The notes under the pieces: generated by a model
Database searches by the model: none
The model's input: the letters and a program-made list of their open reading frames with translations, nothing else
Told to the model about the DNA's origin: nothing
Program-made: the position numbers and the translations under genes
Source: an uncultured Gemmatimonadota bacterium
GTDB taxonomy: Bacteria; JAAXHH01
DNA: 64,000 nt
Direction of reading: 5' to 3'
Assembly: GCA_951812955.1 (NCBI GenBank)
Contig: OX638340.1
Span: 3,072,001 to 3,136,000, forward strand
Shown: positions 3,181 through 59,550 of the stretch, piece by piece
Layout of the letters: the number at the start of each line of letters is the position of its first letter
Numbering within the stretch: position 1 is the first letter of the stretch

Positions 3181-3843
3181 TTATCCGCCGCAGCAGGTCT
3201 GCATCACTTTTTCCACCCGATCGCGCACTTCCGCCTGCACTTCTTCGGGCGCGCGCGCGCCATCAATAATCTCAATCTGATCCAATGTTTTTCTGCGGTG
3301 CGCCAGTTCCAGGTAATTTCCGCGGATGGCGCGAAGCGTTTCCAGGTTCTCGAACAACTCGGTATCCGCACGCGCCTGGCGTATCCGTTCCATGCAAACC
3401 TCGGCGGGCGCATCGATGAGCAGGGTCAGATGGGGGTGGATCGCCCGTGCGTTGATCGACTCGATCCAGTCCAGCTCGCCGGGCATCTCCCGCCACTGGT
3501 AGGCAAAGGACGAGAGGAAATAACGGTCGCACAACACGGGGATTCCGCGGTGAATGCTGGATTCGATTTCCGATTTGACGTGATCGATCCGGTCGGCGGC
3601 GAACAGCAGGGCGTGACAGATGCCGTCGAGTTCCACCCGGCGCTGAAGGGCATCTTTCAGCAGTCTGCCGATGGGGCGGTTCGTGGGTTCTCCCGTGGTA
3701 AGGACGGGCCTCCCGTAACGCACTTCCATCCACTCGTGAAGGCGTTTCAGCTGAGTCGTCTTGCCCGCGCCGTCTATCCCTTCGATTACGATGAATGGCG
3801 CGGCGGCGTCGCCGGAATCGCGGCAGACCTCCTTTCCCTTCAT
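3181..3843 (-). CDS. tmk: Thymidylate kinase
   Basis: P-loop FIVIEGIDGAGKTTQ, DRY-like motif LCDRY; start ATG 3843 overlaps upstream stop (ATGA). Confidence 0.85.
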   Translation of the reverse strand: MKGKEVCRDSGDAAAPFIVIEGIDGAGKTTQLKRLHEWMEVRYGRPVLTTGEPTNRPIGRLLKDALQRRVELDGICHALLFAADRIDHVKSEIESSIHRGIPVLCDRYFLSSFAYQWREMPGELDWIESINARAIHPHLTLLIDAPAEVCMERIRQARADTELFENLETLRAIRGNYLELAHRRKTLDQIEIIDGARAPEEVQAEVRDRVEKVMQTCCGG

Positions 3844-4520
3844 GAATTCCCCCATGGACGGAGCAGGTCCCGCCATCCACGCGCTTCTTCCAGGACGCTG
3901 GTTTCGCTAAGCTCATATCGTTTCAGGGTTTCACGCAGTCCGGTGCTGAACAGCACGCCGATGGCACCGATGCCCAGGAAGAGCAGCCCGATACCGCTGG
4001 CCAGGCTGAAGACCATGATGAGAGAACCGGCCAGCAACAGCACGAAGGCGTAGCCGGCGTTGTCCAGGGCGAGGAATACACCGGAACGGATGATCTGCCT
4101 GACCGGGGCCCGGTTCCGGTACGCAAGCGGCAATGTGAAGACGGCCGTCATGCAGACGAAGACGATCAGCCACATCATCACGCCGCCCAGGACCGCGCCG
4201 GTCCAGGGCCAGTCATCCATGAGACGCATGTAGAAAAACACGTTGGCGGCAAGGAGAGCCAGGACGCCCGCGTAAAGCCCGCAGAGCACGAAACTGCGGC
4301 CCAGATCCTGCCTGGCGTGAACGAAGAAATCCCTCAAGCCCGTCTCTTCGTAGGCGGCGATTCGTCCGGTGACCCGGAACAGTCCGGCAAAGGCGAGGGG
4401 AAGCGTAACCAGCGGCAGGGCGCACAATATCCACAGGATGTTGATCACGATCAGCGTTCCCAGGTAATCATAGGTATTCCAGAACCATTTCCTGAACAGC
4501 CCGGGATCCTTGTCCTGCAT
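3840..4520 (-). CDS. DUF624/YesL-like integral membrane protein
   Basis: 226 aa, several long hydrophobic segments; N-terminal FRKWFWNTYDYLGTLIVINILW resembles YesL family. Confidence 0.55.
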   Translation of the reverse strand: MQDKDPGLFRKWFWNTYDYLGTLIVINILWILCALPLVTLPLAFAGLFRVTGRIAAYEETGLRDFFVHARQDLGRSFVLCGLYAGVLALLAANVFFYMRLMDDWPWTGAVLGGVMMWLIVFVCMTAVFTLPLAYRNRAPVRQIIRSGVFLALDNAGYAFVLLLAGSLIMVFSLASGIGLLFLGIGAIGVLFSTGLRETLKRYELSETSVLEEARGWRDLLRPWGNS

Positions 4521-37748: not shown

Positions 37749-37835
37749 GTCGCTCCTCCCGCATTGGAGTAGGTTCCTCCCGCATTGGAGCAGGTCGCTC
37801 CTCCCGCATTGGAGCAGGTCGCTCCTTCCGCCTGG
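37742..37835. repeat. Four tandem 21-24 bp repeats (ggagYaggtcgctcctcccgcatt), each a GGAGC-loop-GCTCC hairpin, between convergent PHP and pyrC genes; likely bidirectional terminator region
   Basis: units at 37742-37765, 37766-37786, 37787-37810, 37811-37835; first unit includes PHP stop codon. Confidence 0.6.
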
Positions 37836-37841
37836 ACCGGC

Positions 37842-38849
37842 CTAATGCACGTCCGCCACCGTCCAGTCCAGTTTCCTTCCAGGATACATGGGGATGACGT
37901 CGCCGTACCGCTCAGGTATGACCGCCCCTGTTTTTTCGAACACCACGGTTTTCTCCGGCGGCGCGACGCCGTAGATCCGTTGCGCGTTGTCCGAGACGAA
38001 GGCCTGCAACTGGTCCAGCGCGCCGTTTTCTTCGAAAAGTCCGACGAGCATCTGAAGGGCCACGGGGGCGGTGAAGACCCCGGCGGCGCAGCCGGCGCAC
38101 TCTTTCCTGTCAACCGGGTGCGGCGCGGAATCGCTGCCGAAGGCCAGCTTGGGGTGGGCTTCGAGGGCCCGTGCGAGAAGCGCGTCGCGGTCTTCCGGCC
38201 GCTTGGCGATCGGCTTGCAGAAGAGGTGGGGATTGAGCAGGCCGCCCGCCACGTCGTCCAGGGTGATCAGCAGGTGCTGCAGGGTGACGGTCGCGTACAG
38301 GTTCTCGTGACGGTCCAACAGCGCGGCGGCCTCCAGCGTCGTGATGTGTTCCATGACGATGTCCAGCCGGGGGAAACGCGCGGCCAGATCTTCGTAGACC
38401 GGGAGGAACGCGCGCTCGCGGTCCAGCACGAAATCCGACGTTTCACCGTGAACCATCAAACGGATTCCCATTTCCTCCATGCTGGCCAGGGTATCCTCCA
38501 CGTCGCGGAGGTTGCCGACCCCTGTGTCGCTGTGGGTAGTGACGCCCTCCGGGTACAGCTTGACACCGATGATCCGGTCCTTCATCGAGGCCAGTTCCTT
38601 TTCGGTATAGGGCCGCATGAACAGGGTCATGTACGGTTCGAAGGCGTGGCCGGCCACGGCCGTCCTGACTTCGGCCGCGTACCGTTCCAGCCGGCCGAAA
38701 TCATCCACCGGAGGCACCAGGTTGGGCATGATCACACCGCCGGCGAAGGTCCTGGCGCTCAACGGCGCCACGCGCCTCAGCATATCGCCTTCGCGGAAGT
38801 GGATGTGCATGTCCAGGGGGGAATGGAGGAAGCAGGTCGGGTTCGTCAT
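37842..38849 (-). CDS. pyrC: Dihydroorotase, homodimeric (class II) type
   Basis: start [27 protein letters not shown] (metal-binding HxH) ... [12 protein letters not shown]; ATG at 38849 (longer track ORF has spurious N-extension). Confidence 0.85.
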
Positions 38850-38884
38850 GGGAAGAGCAGGATTCCGAATTACGCCATTTGAAT

Positions 38885-52400: not shown

Positions 52401-53423
52401 TTAAGACGCTTCGAATACCTTGCCTATTTCATCCCGGTCGAAGGTTGGCAGATCGACGACCGCCCCGTCCCTCCTTATCCGGATTCCGTACCCGGGAGGT
52501 TCTATAGAGCCAATCACGGCGGCCGGAATGCCGGCTTCCGCGAGGCGGGCGGTCACCGGGTCCGCGCAGTCCGCATCTACCACGATGAGCAGCGCGCCCG
52601 ACGCGATGACGCCAAGGGGATCCAGGCCGTAGTACGAACAAAGGGCCTCCGATTCGGGCAACAGGGGCAGCCGGTCCTCCTCGATGAGCATGCCGACATC
52701 GGAAGCGACGGCGATTTCGCGAAGCCCCGAAGCGACTCCGCCCTCCGTCGGATCATGCATGGCGTGGACCCCTCCGGTTTCCATGGCGATGCGGGATTCA
52801 CGGACTACGCTGAGGCCGGGCCGCCGGAGGTACAGGCGGCACGTCTCGAGAAATTCGTCGGAGAAACGAGCCCTGACCTCGTCACTTTTTTCCATGGCGA
52901 TCAGCGCCGTCGCCTCGATGGCGATGCCCTTGGTAAGCAGGATACGGTCGCCCACCCTGGCGCCGGATCCGGTAACGTAGCCGTCGGGTGTCGTTTCCCC
53001 CAGCATCTGCCCGATCAGCAGCGGCCGGTCCAGACCGTGGGTGATTTCGGTATGGCCACCGGCGAGCGTGACGCCGAGTTCCCGGCACGCGTCGGACAAC
53101 CCGGAGAATATGCGGTCCACCAGATCGGGGTCCGTTTTCGCTTCCGGAAGCAGTATGGTCGTGAGGAACCACCGGGGCGCCGCGCCCATGGCCGCCACGT
53201 CGTTGGCGTTTATGTTGACGGCGTACCAGCCGATCTCTTCGGTGGCGAAGGTGATAGGGTCCGTTTTCGTCACGAGTACGCTGGAACCGAACGAAATCAC
53301 CGCCGCGTCCCGGCCGATGCCAGGACCCACGAGCATTCTCGGGTCGGAACTGGAAGCATAGCGTCGCAGTATGCGGTCCAGATCTTCCGCGGGCAGCTTG
53401 CCGACCGGGTAATAGGGAGGCAT
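52401..53423 (-). CDS. AIR-synthase-related (PurM-superfamily; ThiL/HypE-like) protein of unassigned function
   Basis: LVGPGIGRDAAVI, NINANDVAAMGAAPRWFLTTILLPE (ThiL-like), MHDPTEGG; no C-terminal Cys (not HypE), no N-terminal Cys/Sec (not SelD). Confidence 0.6.
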   Translation of the reverse strand: MPPYYPVGKLPAEDLDRILRRYASSSDPRMLVGPGIGRDAAVISFGSSVLVTKTDPITFATEEIGWYAVNINANDVAAMGAAPRWFLTTILLPEAKTDPDLVDRIFSGLSDACRELGVTLAGGHTEITHGLDRPLLIGQMLGETTPDGYVTGSGARVGDRILLTKGIAIEATALIAMEKSDEVRARFSDEFLETCRLYLRRPGLSVVRESRIAMETGGVHAMHDPTEGGVASGLREIAVASDVGMLIEEDRLPLLPESEALCSYYGLDPLGVIASGALLIVVDADCADPVTARLAEAGIPAAVIGSIEPPGYGIRIRRDGAVVDLPTFDRDEIGKVFEAS

Positions 53424-53530: not shown

Positions 53531-53833
53531 TTATTCCCGCCGCTTTCGCTGGGCGCGCAAAGCTTCTTTGAGTATCTTCCCCGGTTTGAACCTGGCTTTA
53601 CGCCTGGCCGGAACTTCGATGGTATACCCGGTCCGCGGATTGCGGGCCGCCGGCTTGGGGCGGGTATTCCTGATTTCCAGCGCGCCGAATCCCCGGATCT
53701 CGATCCGGTTCCCCTCGACCAGGTTCTCCCGCATGATCTCGAAGAGGGCGTCGATCACGGGATAGATCTGGGTCTTTTTGAGCCCCAGCGTCTCGCTGAT
53801 TTCATTGACCAGTTCCCTGCGCGTCGTCGTCAT
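53531..53833 (-). CDS. HU/IHF-family DNA-binding protein
   Basis: 100 aa; RIEIRGFGALEIRNTRPKPAARNPRTGYTIEVPARRKARFKPGK. Confidence 0.85.
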   Translation of the reverse strand: MTTTRRELVNEISETLGLKKTQIYPVIDALFEIMRENLVEGNRIEIRGFGALEIRNTRPKPAARNPRTGYTIEVPARRKARFKPGKILKEALRAQRKRRE

Positions 53834-54507
53834 TTAGGTTCCTCGGACCCGATGCCTTCGTTTCCGCCGGACAATCCCGCCCGACCGTACATGCGGCGCA
53901 ACTTGTCCACGTTCTCTTCGCCTATGGTATTGACCTGGCCGAGCATGCGCGCCACGAGGGTAATCCGTGCGCAGTGCTCCATGGTCTCCATCTTGTGATA
54001 CGCCGCAACGATGTCCGGACCCAGGGTCAGCGCGCCATGGTTTTCGAGCAGGACCGCGTCGTATTCCCGCACGTATTCCCGGAGCGATTCGACCAGCTCC
54101 ATGGTTCCCGGCGTCCCGTATGGCGCGATGGGGACATGTCCGAGGGAGACGATCACTTCCGGCAGCAGGTTGTCCGGCAGATTCACCCCGGCCACGGAAA
54201 ACCCCGTTGACGCCGGTGGATGGGCGTGGGCGACGGCGTGCACGTCCGGCCGTTCCCGATACACCATCAGGTGCATTTTCATCTCGGACGAAGGCTCGTG
54301 ACTTCCGGAGATCACCGCGCCGTCATAATCGACGACCACGAACTTATCCGGATCGAGGAATCCTTTGCTGACCCCGGTCATCGTGATCAGCAACCGGTCT
54401 TCGGACAGCCGAACGCTGAGGTTCCCGTCGTTCGAGGCCACGTACCCGCGGTCATACATCCGCTTGCCGACATGGATCACGTCGGATAGGACTTGATCAA
54501 GTTGCAA
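53830..54507 (-). CDS. Class II aldolase/adducin-family protein (FucA / RuBP-epimerase / MTRu-1-P dehydratase-like)
   Basis: 225 aa; GNLSVRL, HAHPPAS, ENHG motifs; TTG start. Confidence 0.75.
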   Translation of the reverse strand: MQLDQVLSDVIHVGKRMYDRGYVASNDGNLSVRLSEDRLLITMTGVSKGFLDPDKFVVVDYDGAVISGSHEPSSEMKMHLMVYRERPDVHAVAHAHPPASTGFSVAGVNLPDNLLPEVIVSLGHVPIAPYGTPGTMELVESLREYVREYDAVLLENHGALTLGPDIVAAYHKMETMEHCARITLVARMLGQVNTIGEENVDKLRRMYGRAGLSGGNEGIGSEEPK

Positions 54508-54605: not shown

Positions 54606-56072
54606 TTATAAGCCGGACCTTACAATACGCGCCACGTCGTGAATCCGGCTTTTCTCTACGCCCCGCATGTCGATCCGGACCCGGTCCCGGCCGCAATCGA
54701 CCAGCAGAGGAGGGGTCCCATTAAGCCACCGGTCCGCCAGGTCTTCGCCCCTGGACCCCGGCGCGCGAACCGAGACAGCGAAGCTGGGCATGGCGTGGAT
54801 GGGAAGGCGGTACGTGGTGAGATGCGACCGCTGTTCGACCACGGTACACTCCGCGCGGAATCGACAGTCTTCAGTCAGGCGTTCGAGCAACTGGCGGGCA
54901 CGGGCGCCTACCTCGTCCGGGGATGCGGCCAGCATGTGGGCCGCCGGGTGGTTCTCGAGGTCGCAGTCGCTCCCGGCCAGTTCCGCCAGACGCGCGTCGA
55001 GCCCCGCTCTCACGTGCCTGGAGGCCCGCGCCGCGGGCCACATGCCGTGCCCTCTAATGCGCGCCAGGATCCGGCGCTTTCCGATCAGCAGTCCGCAGGG
55101 GGGACCGCCAATCAGGCCTCCGCCGGCCGCGATGATCAACGGCGTGCCGTGCCGCACCGCTTCCGCGACGGAGCCCGCGGCCGGAAGCGCGGCGGAAGTG
55201 ACCGGGCGCAACGTCGTGTCGCCGGCCAGGTGAAGCACCTCGACGCCGGTGTCCGTACCGGTCCGTACGATCTCTTCCTGCGCGGGTTCTTCTGTGAAAC
55301 CTCGAAGGGCGCAGGTGGACGGGCGCGCCGTGACGATCAGCGCGGTGCGGTCACCTACGGCGCCAAGGTAGTCGGACACGCGGGTCTTGTTGGCGGCGCC
55401 GGCCTCTACCACGGCTGCGCCGGCCTGTCCACAGATCGACACCGGACTCAAAGGCCGCGCATCGTAAGGCGCATCGATCAGTCCAAGCTGGCTGCGGCCG
55501 AAGACGACTTCCGCACCTTCGGCGAGGGCCCGGATCGCCAGGAAGAAAGCGGCGCCGACCGAACGGCATACCAGTGCGTCCTCGGCGCCGGTCAATTCGC
55601 CAAGCAGGCCGGAGGCGCGGCCGTCATCGTCGTAAGCCGCGACCGTGAGCGACAGCCGCGAAGCCCTATCCGCGGCCTTCCCGGCAAACCGGTCCCGCGC
55701 CCGTGGATGGAAGAGGATGCCGGAGGCGTTGATCAGGTCCCCGGCCGTCGACCTGTCTTCCCGCTCCAGGAGCGCGGCGACTCGTCCCGCGAAGTGCTCC
55801 GACTCGAAACCGGCCGTCGACCTTTCTTCCCGCTCCAGGAGCGTGGCGACTCGTCCCGCGAAGTGCTCCGGCTCGAAACCGCCTGCTTCAGTCTCGGGAG
55901 GACGGAACCGGATCCGGTCCCGCGCGTCGCGCAGTACTTTCCGGATCGCGTTGTCGATCTGCCGGTCCTCGAACCGGCCGCGCAATGCCCCGACGCGGGG
56001 ATCGCGTTGCATCGCGCCCACGGAAGGCAGGAGGGCGAGCCAGGGCCTTAAGTCTTCGCGGCCTGGTCTCAT
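54606..56072 (-). CDS. SelA-family (L-seryl-tRNA(Sec) selenium transferase-like) fold-type-I PLP protein LACKING the PLP lysine; contains 23-aa in-frame tandem duplication
   Basis: ATG 56072; LTGAEDALV, EVVFGRSQLGLIDAPYD...AGAANKTRVSDY, IVTARPSTCALRGFT align with SelA core; where SelA has SFSGDKLLGGPQAGIIVGK this has IIAAGGGLIGGPPCGLLIGK (Lys to Gly, DNA 55116-55118 = gcc on plus strand); the 624-aa track ORF has a spurious 136-aa N-extension. Confidence 0.65.
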   Translation of the reverse strand: MRPGREDLRPWLALLPSVGAMQRDPRVGALRGRFEDRQIDNAIRKVLRDARDRIRFRPPETEAGGFEPEHFAGRVATLLEREERSTAGFESEHFAGRVAALLEREDRSTAGDLINASGILFHPRARDRFAGKAADRASRLSLTVAAYDDDGRASGLLGELTGAEDALVCRSVGAAFFLAIRALAEGAEVVFGRSQLGLIDAPYDARPLSPVSICGQAGAAVVEAGAANKTRVSDYLGAVGDRTALIVTARPSTCALRGFTEEPAQEEIVRTGTDTGVEVLHLAGDTTLRPVTSAALPAAGSVAEAVRHGTPLIIAAGGGLIGGPPCGLLIGKRRILARIRGHGMWPAARASRHVRAGLDARLAELAGSDCDLENHPAAHMLAASPDEVGARARQLLERLTEDCRFRAECTVVEQRSHLTTYRLPIHAMPSFAVSVRAPGSRGEDLADRWLNGTPPLLVDCGRDRVRIDMRGVEKSRIHDVARIVRSGL

Positions 56073-56785
56073 GCGGGGATTCCTCCCCGGCCTACCGTCG
56101 CGAGCGCGGATTCCGTGCAGCGTCCGGTCGAGGGATCGCCGCCGGCCCGCAGCGCCCGTATCTCGCGGGCGACCCGGTCCAGATCGGCGGGCCGGTCCAC
56201 GTCGTGCCAGACCGGGAGCTCGTGGCACGTAAGACCGCTTGCCCGGATTGCCGCCCGAGTCTGGCGCAACACGCGGCCTGTGCCCCAATGGATGGAGTCG
56301 AACAGCCTGGCGCAACGGCATGCGACCTTCACGCCGCGTCTCATGCCGATCAGGTAATACCCGCCGTCCTCGGCAGGTCCGAGCACAACGTCGTGCCGGT
56401 CGAGCGACTCGAAAGCCTCTTCGACGTAAGCGCGGGGCAGGAGGGGGCTGTCTCCACCCAGCACGACGGTCTTGTCCCATTCATTCTGCAAGAACTCCGC
56501 GAAGGCGTTCGACAGCCGTTCCCCGAGATGACCACCTCGCTGGCCGGTCCATATCACGTCCGGATCGCCGAGGGCGGACCGGAGATCCGCCAGTCCGTCT
56601 TCGGGCGCCCAGGCAACGTAGAGGGACGCGCTGGCGATCCCTTGCGCAATATGGAGCGTGTCCAGGATGAAGGCGCGGTAGAGTGCCGCCGCCGCACCGG
56701 GTGAGACCCGCGCCGTCAACCGGGTTTTCACCGTCCCGGGTCTCGGGGCTTTCATGAACAGGACGAGTGCGTTCGACATGGACAT
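56069..56785 (-). CDS. DUF2064-family protein (GT-A / MobA-like nucleotidyltransferase fold)
   Basis: LVLFMKAPRPGTVKTRL, LGGDSPLLP, GPAEDGGYYLIGMRR, HDVDRPADLDRV; stop overlaps SelA-like start (ATGA); start chosen at Met 56785 (track ORF starts 56863). Confidence 0.6.
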   Translation of the reverse strand: MSMSNALVLFMKAPRPGTVKTRLTARVSPGAAAALYRAFILDTLHIAQGIASASLYVAWAPEDGLADLRSALGDPDVIWTGQRGGHLGERLSNAFAEFLQNEWDKTVVLGGDSPLLPRAYVEEAFESLDRHDVVLGPAEDGGYYLIGMRRGVKVACRCARLFDSIHWGTGRVLRQTRAAIRASGLTCHELPVWHDVDRPADLDRVAREIRALRAGGDPSTGRCTESALATVGRGGIPA

Positions 56786-57084
56786 GTGCTGGACGTTACA
56801 GGGAAGACAGGTTCCGCCCGGGGGCGGCAAGGCATTGAACCGATGCGTTGCGAGGCAACCCATGCATACTACCTGGCGGCTCGTGACGTGTCAATTAAAA
56901 CCCCTGTTTATCAACCAGTTAACCCGATTTCCATCAGCTCGGGAACAACAATAAGACTTGACATTAAGGGTACTTGAAGGTTATTTTCGGCCTTTCTTGC
57001 CGGGCGCCGGCCTTCCCCGATACATAAGGACCGGAGCCCGTTAAAGACGAGCCGCCTGGCGGCGCCGGGTCCGATCCATGGAAG

Positions 57085-58156: not shown

Positions 58157-58981
58157 ATGATACTCATTACGCGAAAAACCCGTTTCTCGGCGGCCCATCT
58201 GTGCCACGACCCGCAGTGGCCGGAGGCCAGGAACAGGCGGGTGTACGGAACCTGCGCCGTCGGCACCGGCCACGGTCACGACTACGAGGCCGAATTCACT
58301 TTCGGAGGACCAGTCGATCCCCGGACCGGCGTGGTCCTGAACCTGACCGAGGTCAAGCGGCTGATCCACGCCGTGATCGAGCCGCTGGATCTGAGCCATC
58401 TGAACCACGACCACGCCGCCCTGGAGGGTCCGGCTCCGACGAGCGAAAGACTCGTCCGGTACCTCTGGCACGCGCTGGAAAGCGGTACCGGGCGGTGCGA
58501 GCTTACGCGCATCCTGCTCCATGAAAGCCGCGCGAGAAGTATCGAATACACTGGAGACGACAGCATGGTCCTTGTCACGAGAAGCGTAGAGTTCAACGCC
58601 GCCCACCGTCTGCACAGTATTAAGTTGAGCGACGAAGAGAACGTGCGTATATTCGGCAAGTGCAATAACCCGCACGGCCACGGCCACAATTATGAACTCG
58701 CGGTGACGGTCCGCGGCCCGGTAGACGAGAAGACCGGGATGGTCATCGACATGGGACGTTTCGATGAGATCCTCCAGAAGGAAGTCGTGGATCGTTACGA
58801 TCACCGGCACCTGAACCGGGACCTGGAGGAATTCAGGACGGTCAATCCGACCTCGGAGGAGATGCTACGCGTTATCTGGGCGCGGCTGCTTCCCTTTTTC
58901 GATTCCCCATCCCTGTACAGGATTCGCCTGGTGGAAACGTCCAAGAACGCTTTCGAGTATTTCGGAGAAGAGGACCGGTAA
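58157..58981 (+). CDS. Two-domain 6-pyruvoyl-tetrahydropterin synthase / QueD-like protein
   Basis: 274 aa with two PTPS modules, each with C-x5-HGH motif ([12 protein letters not shown] and [12 protein letters not shown]). Confidence 0.75.
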
Positions 58982-58986
58982 CCACG

Positions 58987-59550
58987 ATGGATCCTATCGA
59001 GGGATTGACAAGGTCACTGCTCGCCGAAATCGGCGAGAACCCGGACCGGGACGGTCTCAGGCGGACGCCCCGCCGCGTAGCGGAATCCCTGCGGTTTCTG
59101 ACACAGGGCTACGAAAAAAGCATTGAAACCGTTATTAATAACGCTATCTATGAAGAGGACTACGATGAGATGGTACTGGTGAAGGACATTGAGTTCTTCT
59201 CGCTGTGTGAGCACCACCTGCTGCCGTTTTTCGGCCAGTGCCATATCGCCTACATACCCAACGGCAAGATAATCGGACTCGGCAAAGTCCCCCGCATCGT
59301 GGACGTCTTCTCGCGGCGTCTGCAGTTGCAGGAGCGCCTGACCTTCCAGATCGCCCAGACCCTGCAGACCTGGCTCGACCCCCTCGGGGTGGCGGTTGTC
59401 ATGGAAGCGGGCCATCTCTGCATGATGATGCGCGGCGTGGAGAAACAGCACTCCAAGGCGACGACGAGCGCCATGCTCGGCGTATTCCGGGACGATCGCG
59501 CCACGCGGATGGAATTTCTCGATCTGACCCGGTCGAAGCACGGCGGGTAA
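58987..59550 (+). CDS. folE: GTP cyclohydrolase I
   Basis: 187 aa; [14 protein letters not shown], zinc-binding Cys/His pattern. Confidence 0.9.

Follow-up and report, generated by a model that had tools for sequence, protein, structure and literature searches.

This study concerns a two-gene unit in a 64,000-nucleotide stretch of DNA from an uncultured Gemmatimonadota bacterium (contig OX638340.1, positions 3,072,001–3,136,000 of the forward strand; the whole stretch is called the window). In this unit, a gene of the selenocysteine synthase (SelA) family has lost the lysine that forms the Schiff base with pyridoxal 5′-phosphate (PLP), and it overlaps the end of a gene of the DUF2064 family. 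The loss is shared by every relative that was compared, the SelA fold and the N-terminal domain are retained, and the gene is under purifying selection. On the reading preferred here, which is held tentatively and not as a firm expectation, the protein may be a SelA-derived pseudoenzyme that serves as a non-catalytic binding or scaffold partner of the DUF2064 enzyme, as a ring of dimers that would hold a nucleic-acid or nucleotide ligand. The gene, with the methods used to characterize it, and the segments in which it departs from SelA are as follows:

54606–56072, minus strand: lysine-less SelA-family gene, 488 aa (Pfam, TIGR00474, AlphaFold2 (AF2) model, ratio of nonsynonymous to synonymous substitution rates (dN/dS))
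55116–55130, minus strand: AAGGG replacing the S-G-D-K PLP site, residues 315–319 (phmmer and MAFFT alignments)
55689–55709, minus strand: HPRARDR, the degenerate counterpart of HTNLGR, residues 122–128 (alignments)
55314–55325, minus strand: RPST replacing SelA H-x-S-N (family alignment)
55014–55040, minus strand: WPAARASRH replacing R-A-L-R-x-D-K, the selenophosphate Arg312/Arg315 segment (alignments)
54801–54824, minus strand: HLTTYRLP, a family-specific conserved motif of the C-terminal domain replacing the SelA G-G-G-S-L-P loop (family alignment)

The open reading frame (ORF) runs from 56072 to 54606, and LTGAEDALV, EVVFGRSQLGLIDAPYD, EAGAANKTRVSDY and GRDRVRIDMR are all present in it. 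A first-pass annotation had aligned this gene lengthwise with SelA and its upstream neighbour with DUF2064, and hidden Markov model searches agree on both families, with E-values of 5.9e-44 for Pfam SelA PF03841 (the SelA core fold, a fold-type I PLP scaffold) and 1e-29 for Pfam DUF2064. TIGR00474 (selA) matches the SelA-like protein over model positions 4–453 with 189.1 bits, where the curated equivalog cutoff of 267.9 is not reached, and TIGR01437 (selA_rel) gives only 18.6 bits. The AF2 model has a predicted local distance difference test score (pLDDT) of 76.6, and its best Foldseek matches in the PDB are the SelA structures 3w1h and 8uzw (E about 3e-29 to 1e-24; template-modelling score, normalised to the target, 0.72–0.86). 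True SelAs can be aligned with the protein from end to end at 25–30% identity, and the structural motifs TGAE, ExGxxNKT, GF and GGP are kept; the NCBI name for members of the window clade is 'hypothetical protein'. By its sequence, the window protein is a SelA-fold homologue and no SelA, since it stays below the cutoff and is without the lysine, the PLP contacts and the selenophosphate arginines.

The position of the lysine was established by phmmer comparison with E. coli SelA (8uzw) and Aquifex SelA (3w1h) and by MAFFT alignments of 30 and of 216 sequences. In the phmmer alignments, S-G-D-K of both solved proteins stands opposite A-G-G-G of the window protein; the Schiff-base lysine (Aquifex K285, E. 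coli K295) corresponds to Gly319, and in Aquifex numbering Ser282 and Asp284 correspond to Ala316 and Gly318. None of 59 family sequences has a lysine here; the residue is Gly in 55 and Ala in P0335-type members. A misalignment or a sequencing error can be ruled out because phmmer and both MAFFT alignments concur and every orthologue examined carries the change, which is therefore neither error nor chance. The initial proposals that AAGGG stands in place of the Schiff-base lysine and that HTNLGR has degenerated to HPRARDR are borne out, and no alignment with bona fide SelAs restores a lysine in any orthologue.

The loss extends well beyond the lysine. When the columns of the 59 family sequences were compared with those of 141 SelAs chosen as lysine-containing, 38 positions that are at least 85% conserved in the latter were found to be replaced in the family; they fall in HTNLGR, the Asn-Asn loop, GGxFRxP, H-x-S-N, the Asp of D-x-G-S-G, S-G-D-K, the Gln after GGP, R-x-x-R-x-D-K and the GGG loop of the C-terminal domain. 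In the SelA literature, K285 forms the Schiff base, R86, R312 and R315 bind selenophosphate, R119 and D284 have a positioning role, and S217 and S282 are PLP contacts; R86 is the Arg of HTNLGR in Aquifex SelA and corresponds to Arg97 in E. coli SelA. In the family, His215 has become Arg250 (fixed in 96%) and Asn218 has become Thr253 (91%), with Ser217 retained; in the window protein, the N1-binding Asp247 is Leu282, the Asn-Asn loop reads RS, and Arg312 is Pro346. Arg315 corresponds to Arg349 in the window protein and to Gln in most of its clade, and is absent in most of the group that reads G-D-G at the lysine position, in which P0189 and P0337 retain it. The R119 position falls in a deleted loop, and the equivalent of R86 is ambiguous in the window clade, while most of the GDG group lacks it. 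Among the functional residues defined in the literature, S217 alone is unambiguously retained. With good confidence, neither PLP catalysis nor selenophosphate binding is predicted for the protein, since the lysine, the remaining PLP contacts and the arginines for selenophosphate are all replaced. The first-pass annotation had offered a non-catalytic paralogue or a protein that uses its cofactor differently; the former is favoured, and the latter is unlikely because the protein has also lost the N1 Asp, the His that stacks on the cofactor, the Ser and Asn-Asn that bind its phosphate, and the selenophosphate arginines.

The 59 relatives, at about 31–94% identity, are all full length, with an intact reading frame and without the lysine. 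About 47 cluster-level relatives lie at 50–94% identity to the window protein, followed by a sharp fall to ordinary SelAs at about 30%; the relatives come from metagenome-assembled genomes (MAGs) that bear the label Gemmatimonadota or Candidatus Latescibacterota, and the names of several MAGs hint at a sponge or coral source. An intermediate tier (P0186–P0191; 285–407 bits in a profile search of 1.8 billion representatives) reads G-D-G or G-S-G at the lysine position. In a neighbour-joining tree, which is rough, the GGG clade is nested in the GDG group and the whole forms one monophyletic lysine-less family. A scan of a genome collection for distant GDG members gave, among the matches listed, only the window-type clade and ordinary SelAs, and the GDG contexts described below come from exact-protein look-ups. 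Distant family members retain more SelA traits (the Asp before the lysine, the N1 Asp in some and the Asn-Asn loop in one), which fits a lysine that was lost early and a pocket that drifted once it was unconstrained.

Selection was estimated as dN/dS by the Nei–Gojobori method. The values are 0.21–0.30 for the SelA-like gene and 0.16–0.29 for the DUF2064 gene, against 0.04–0.18 for the aldolase, AIR-synthase-like (AIRS-like) and topA genes at the same divergences; the SelA-like gene is under purifying selection in a relaxed form. The family has about 20 newly fixed positions (90% or more), including Arg250, Thr253, Cys326, His375 and the LTxYRLP motif. A pseudogene is ruled out by the intact ORFs and by dN/dS of 0.2–0.3. 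Essential catalytic residues are lost, selection is purifying and the gene is kept across species, as is characteristic of a pseudoenzyme, and the protein is presumably inactive.

The other retained part of the SelA architecture is the N-terminal domain, which the first-pass annotation had missed. This domain and the adjoining linker are located as follows:

55902–56072, minus strand: N-terminal domain, residues 1–57, the putative equivalent of the tRNA(Sec)-binding helical domain of SelA (TIGR00474, LPSV motif, AF2)
55743–55880, minus strand: two in-frame 23-aa repeats, GFEPEHFAGRVATLLEREERSTA and GFESEHFAGRVAALLEREDRSTA, in the N-linker (Tandem Repeats Finder, TRF)

In the window protein, the TIGR00474 match begins at model position 4, the LPSV motif is present, and the domain is predicted to be helical with pLDDT 65–84; PF12390 is significant in lysine-less relatives (L088, 6e-13; P0328, 1.7e-10; P0204, 1.2e-05). 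The domain is about 55–57 aa long in the window clade, and its net charge is +6.6, compared with +1.0 in true SelAs. Its conservation within the family is 0.63, against 0.68 for the core, and the N- and C-terminal domains both vary less within the family than they do among true SelAs. The linker that follows is flexible and variable, with low pLDDT at residues 58–88. A recent in-frame tandem duplication lies in it (TRF: 69-bp period, 2.0 copies, 95% match, 55741–55881, residues 65–110); one copy (465 aa) or two (488 aa) occur within the same 90% cluster, and three (511 aa) in P0002, which belongs to a separate cluster at 87% identity. At the same spot in the linker, other clade members carry unrelated short repeats (EADGFAEADGF...). 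As for the residues involved in ring formation in Aquifex SelA, D199 is retained in the family, and the 218–224 segment persists with a conservation pattern of its own.

The gene in front of the SelA-like gene, the junction between the two and the promoter-like site ahead of both are as follows:

56069–56785, minus strand: TIGR04282/DUF2064 gene, 238 aa, with a CofC/MobA-like nucleotidyl- or glycosyl-transferase fold, apparently intact (Pfam, TIGR04282, PDB 3cgx)
56069–56072, minus strand: ATGA start/stop overlap of the DUF2064 and SelA-like genes, with GGAGG 9 nt upstream of the SelA-like start (sequence)
56866–56894, minus strand: sigma-70-type promoter-like site TTGACA-17-TAGTAT upstream of the DUF2064 gene (consensus scan, 10/12)

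The DUF2064 protein exceeds the TIGR04282 cutoff of 134 with 189.7 bits, also matches CofC (1.2e-06), and aligns over residues 5–207 (E = 5.6e-34) with 3cgx, the only solved member of its family, with which it shares KxPxPGxVKTRL, GER, GxDxP, GPxxDGGYYLIG and WxDVD; the earlier assignment of this gene is confirmed, and its motifs are intact. The overlap of the SelA-like ATG at 56072 with the DUF2064 stop codon, also described before, recurs with the same 4 bp in L001–L003 and L087; it measures 17 bp in L088 and 8 bp in the P0340 contig, and a gap of 19 nt takes its place in L086 and L089. Both promoter hexamers are nearly unchanged, with most positions invariant, in six genomes whose SelA-like proteins are 52–91% identical. 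The DUF2064 gene lies directly upstream in all 15 family loci with DNA (L001–L003 and L006–L013, and the GDG-type L086–L089) as well as in the window, whereas 74 SelA loci with the lysine, drawn from many phyla, show no DUF2064 gene within 7 kb. The pairwise distances of the DUF2064 and SelA-like proteins correlate with r = 0.986, and after two neighbouring genes are regressed out the partial r is 0.59, the highest of six gene pairs.

Two further observations touch this region. The intergenic segment between the divergent NrnA-like DHH gene and the DUF2064 gene (56786–57084) is strongly conserved in six genomes and contains two promoter-like sites arranged back to back, TTGACA-17-TAGTAT (minus strand) and TTGACA-18-TATTTT (plus strand), between which lies a conserved element of about 19 nt, GTTAAMTGRTTGATAAAYA, that could be a regulator-binding site. 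In a sub-group including L010 (OZ241920.1, 6129–6548), P0074–P0076, P0078 and P0080, the DUF2064 protein is longer (283–305 aa), and only about 58% of its counterpart in the window aligns with it in one piece, at 83% identity, which suggests an insertion or a divergent segment.

Elsewhere, TIGR04282 genes keep other company, which the first-pass annotation had overlooked: a radical SAM 'selenodomain' protein and a GT2 protein. The nearest DUF2064 proteins outside the family, at about 42–44% identity, are found in this canonical context in two outgroup loci:

L090:5024–7472 and L091:3613–6705: canonical TIGR04282 context, with genes for radical SAM, GT2, metallophosphoesterase, MerA-like flavoprotein and CMD/AhpD-like proteins close by

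The DUF2064 gene of L090 shares a 4-bp overlap with a Radical_SAM+DUF3641 gene, and in L091 a radical SAM gene belongs to the same operon. The radical SAM/DUF3641, GT2 (TIGR04283) and phosphoesterase genes were not found at the window locus or at the 15 family loci; in the studied lineage, it is the SelA-like gene that takes the DUF2064-coupled position. The family is named 'rSAM/selenodomain-associated transferase 1', an older name, by JGI and 'arsenosugar biosynthesis glycosyltransferase' by NCBI. If the DUF3641 'selenodomain' carries selenocysteine (Sec), as it often does, the pair could plausibly have arisen from an ancestral cluster that combined selA with a selenoprotein operon. The literature searched contained no experimental paper on the TIGR04282/DUF2064 family and nothing on DUF2064 function, on a lysine-less SelA or on such a pairing, in line with the earlier remark that no function has been described for the pairing.

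The preferred reading can be put as a sequence of steps. The SelA-like gene would be transcribed as the second of a two-gene unit from the unit's own conserved promoter, and its translation would be coupled to that of an intact TIGR04282/DUF2064 nucleotidyl- or glycosyl-transferase-like enzyme; the architecture inherited from SelA, in which dimers form a ring with flexible, basic arms at the N terminus, might then hold a nucleic acid or a ligand containing a nucleotide, the likeliest being a tRNA-like RNA, and the chemistry would come from DUF2064. An activity in tRNA or nucleotide modification, as put forward in the first-pass annotation, is a conjecture. The way the two genes join, their exclusive adjacency and their parallel rates of evolution suggest the partnership, and the RNA or nucleotide ligand is suggested by an N-terminal domain that is retained, conserved and basic, in contrast with the described orphan SelAs; the fact that this domain was kept while the lysine was lost points to binding, not chemistry, as the retained property. 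A more specific form of this proposal is rather improbable, namely that the SelA-derived ring is an RNA-presenting platform, whose N-terminal arms would capture tRNA (tRNA(Sec) or another), or aminoacyl-tRNA, and pass it to the co-translated DUF2064 protein. If it were true, a new tRNA-dependent modification or small-molecule biosynthesis system would be at hand, and with it the first functional handle on DUF2064/TIGR04282.

Several observations weigh against a scaffold role in partnership with DUF2064. The evolutionary rate of the SelA-like gene is two to three times that of its neighbours, and a new catalytic site would account equally well for the roughly 20 newly fixed residues. The partial correlation has a modest value, uncorrected for phylogeny, and a neighbourhood of about 20 kb is syntenic across the lineage, with NrnA-like DHH, PTPS and FolE on one side and aldolase, HU, AIRS-like, DUF494, topA and xerC on the other; because of this synteny, the adjacency in 15 of 15 loci is essentially one ancient event that has been maintained, and is weaker evidence than it looks. 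The pairing noted in the first-pass annotation is conserved, but that annotation had missed the synteny of the whole neighbourhood, and this conservation counts for correspondingly less. No DUF2064–SelA fusion occurs among six over-long SelA homologues scanned. PF12390 gives no significant match to the window protein (E ≤ 0.01), and the Aquifex dimer–dimer residues R174, T191 and Y220 are changed, so that a decamer cannot be taken for granted. ARAGORN and Rfam find no tRNA or known RNA family in the window, and ARAGORN finds no tRNA in 14 related loci, which removes a nearby tRNA, tRNA(Sec) or non-coding RNA as a partner. Interaction, oligomerisation and RNA binding of the SelA-like protein are all putative.

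It is also conceivable, if unlikely, that the protein is a neofunctionalised enzyme, in which the PLP pocket was rebuilt as a cofactor-independent or differently cofactored site that would share a pathway with DUF2064 and act on a small metabolite, either phosphorylated or linked to a nucleotide. Purifying selection, an operon partner that is an intact enzyme, and the constant presence downstream of a class II aldolase-family gene, which acts on phosphosugars, would all suit such an enzyme, as would the fact that several of the newly fixed positions lie at the former active site (Arg250, Thr253, Cys326 and His375), to which Arg422 can be added. The Cys at the GGPxCG position, however, occurs in ordinary SelAs too, and the sub-groups differ at the former active site (GDG or GGG; the N1 Asp kept or lost; Arg126 in the window clade only), which looks like drift after loss of function and not like a redesigned site. 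No enzyme chemistry without the lysine is known for the fold-type I PLP fold, and this also counts against a new enzyme. Rather improbable is an accessory role in an active Sec pathway, where a dead SelA paralogue would bind tRNA(Sec) or SelD as a chaperone, decoy or regulator beside a true SelA whose gene lies elsewhere in the genome. Such a role would account for the retained tRNA(Sec)-binding-type N-terminal domain, and the usual place of TIGR04282 beside a radical SAM protein with a C-terminal 'selenodomain' that often carries Sec makes an ancestral selenoprotein link plausible; it would leave the strict coupling to DUF2064 unexplained. As the first-pass annotation had noted for selB, selD and selC, neither these nor a selenoprotein gene is present in the 64-kb window, nor in the 14 related loci, and no true SelA from a dozen large clade chromosomes surfaced in two protein searches, which is a weak test.

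Still less probable is an evolutionary relic, a former selA whose role disappeared with the Sec trait and which persists through regional synteny and an overlap that makes its deletion costly. The SelA-like gene is the fastest-evolving gene of the neighbourhood (mean distance 0.75, against 0.24–0.53), its dN/dS lies above that of its neighbours, its linker tolerates repeat expansion, and its active-site positions have drifted, all of which a relic would show. On the other hand, the frame is intact in 59 of 59 sequences, down to about 31–40% identity, with dN/dS well below 1; the N- and C-terminal domains are more strongly held than in true SelAs, and 20 positions are newly fixed. In addition, the gene outlived the loss of adjacent microcompartment genes in the window clade.

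Compared with bacterial SelA (EC 2.9.1.1; PF03841 and PF12390; 3w1h and 8uzw), the window family has the same fold and the same order of N-terminal helical domain, linker, core and C-terminal domain, but it is without Lys285, Asp284, Ser282, His215, Asn218, Asp247, Arg312, the Asn-Asn loop and the R-G-x-R loop, and it is linked to DUF2064, as true SelAs are not, without a link to selB or selC. Orphan SelA homologues (H. pylori HP1513, Frankia, the DgaE/'SelA_rel' lineage and M. jannaschii MJ0158) still have the lysine and the arginines that bind phosphate, but their N-terminal domain is gone. They resemble the window family as SelA-family proteins recruited to a non-Sec role under relaxed selection, but the pattern is the opposite, since in the window family the lysine is absent and the N-terminal domain present. 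With the canonical TIGR04282 system, the locus shares an upstream gene that is a true member by HMM score and is coupled at the junction to its neighbour; the Radical_SAM+DUF3641, GT2 and metallophosphoesterase genes of that system are missing from the window locus, and the SelA-like gene adjoins DUF2064 instead. What is new here is a lineage-restricted lysine-less SelA family paired with DUF2064; SelA relatives in non-Sec roles and pseudoenzymes were already known. SelA has been studied almost solely as the bacterial selenocysteine synthase, and a family with the reverse pattern suggests a second, non-catalytic use of the scaffold; DUF2064/TIGR04282 is a widespread enzyme family, and the lysine-less SelA offers a concrete, testable partner pair for learning its role. 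The reverse pattern and the strict coupling to DUF2064 would surprise specialists in selenium biology or PLP enzymes, with the provisos that the mechanism is a proposal and that the pairing is confounded by synteny.

Loss of the lysine appears to be recurrent in the SelA family, because sixteen further lysine-less homologues were found among the top-150 representative matches (P0196, P0200, P0204, P0207, P0210–P0212, P0229, P0230, P0237, P0278, P0282, P0298, P0299, P0326 and P0328), three of which stand in the tree beside planctomycete-like true SelAs. They read GNR, GEQ, GDG, GDR, GDL, GAG, GDD, GGE, GGS and others at the lysine. As in the window family, the lysine is replaced and the active-site motifs are degenerate, and the N-terminal domain is kept in L048, P0204 and P0328; unlike it, P0196, P0200 and P0298 group with the lysine-containing planctomycete-like SelAs in the neighbour-joining tree. 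P0328 joins near the base of the lysine-less family in the same tree, in which L048 was not included. The L048 gene (6863–8356; Thermoguttaceae, 'RGDR'), which keeps the N-terminal domain, lies between rhaT/rhaA and IMPDH and has no DUF2064 neighbour. A G-D-G member of the window family, MBI4551757.1 (P0189; L088:8707–10128; from a Candidatus Latescibacterota MAG), is named 'L-seryl-tRNA(Sec) selenium transferase' by NCBI, a label that is very likely wrong because the lysine is absent. Misnamed entries of this kind can inflate the inference of the Sec trait from metagenomes, and lysine-less homologues are fairly common among distant relatives, so surveys of the trait should check the lysine.

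Downstream of the pair lie two genes that recur in the related loci:

53830–54507, minus strand: class II aldolase-family gene, constant downstream neighbour (Pfam Aldolase_II, 4.2e-50; below all NCBIfam cutoffs)
52401–53423, minus strand: AIR-synthase-family protein, 340 aa from MPPYYPVGKLP... (below curated cutoffs)

The aldolase gene follows the SelA-like gene in every locus that is long enough, after a 98-nt AT-rich spacer in the window; a terminator or structured RNA in this spacer was considered and rejected, as its folding is no better than that of shuffled sequences (z = +1.4). In more distant relatives, a fucose/rhamnose-type bacterial microcompartment (BMC) operon stands between the aldolase and HU genes (L086:11588–17788, L088:10243–16723, L089:10306–12804), with acetate kinase, PduL-type phosphotransacylase, BMC-H, three EutN and aldehyde dehydrogenase genes; the BMC of Latescibacteria can be compared. 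The window clade has lost this operon (compare window 53531–54507) and has retained the DUF2064/SelA-like pair and the aldolase gene; the pairing has thus survived considerable rearrangement. Because the shell and enzyme genes were lost and the pair was kept, the pair is independent of the BMC, and its being a part of the adjacent microcompartment locus is ruled out. The aldolase, retained after the loss, either has another role or belongs with the pair, and its membership in the two-gene unit is uncertain.

The AIR-synthase-like protein had been weighed against SelD in the first-pass annotation, on the ground of its missing Cys/Sec. It scores 107 bits with ThiL, 107 with HypE and 98 with SelD, all below cutoff, as for all NCBIfam cutoffs; its nearest solved relatives are HypE and then ThiL, it is strongly conserved, with dN/dS of 0.04–0.23, and it keeps a constant HU–AIRS–DUF494–topA order. 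Being closer to HypE and ThiL, it is rejected as a dead SelD and gives no evidence for a selenium theme at the locus. On the other side of the pair, and on the opposite strand, a tandem two-domain PTPS/QueD-like protein with two PF01242 domains (58157–58981, plus strand) lies directly upstream of GTP cyclohydrolase I (58987–59550, plus strand), and the two are conserved together in all related loci. Further away in the window, two ORFs, at 37785–38882 (plus strand, 365 aa) and 3840–4520 (minus strand, 226 aa), have a coding-like GC content at third codon positions and no Pfam match at E ≤ 1e-4, and the former has an unusually high first-position GC of 0.82.

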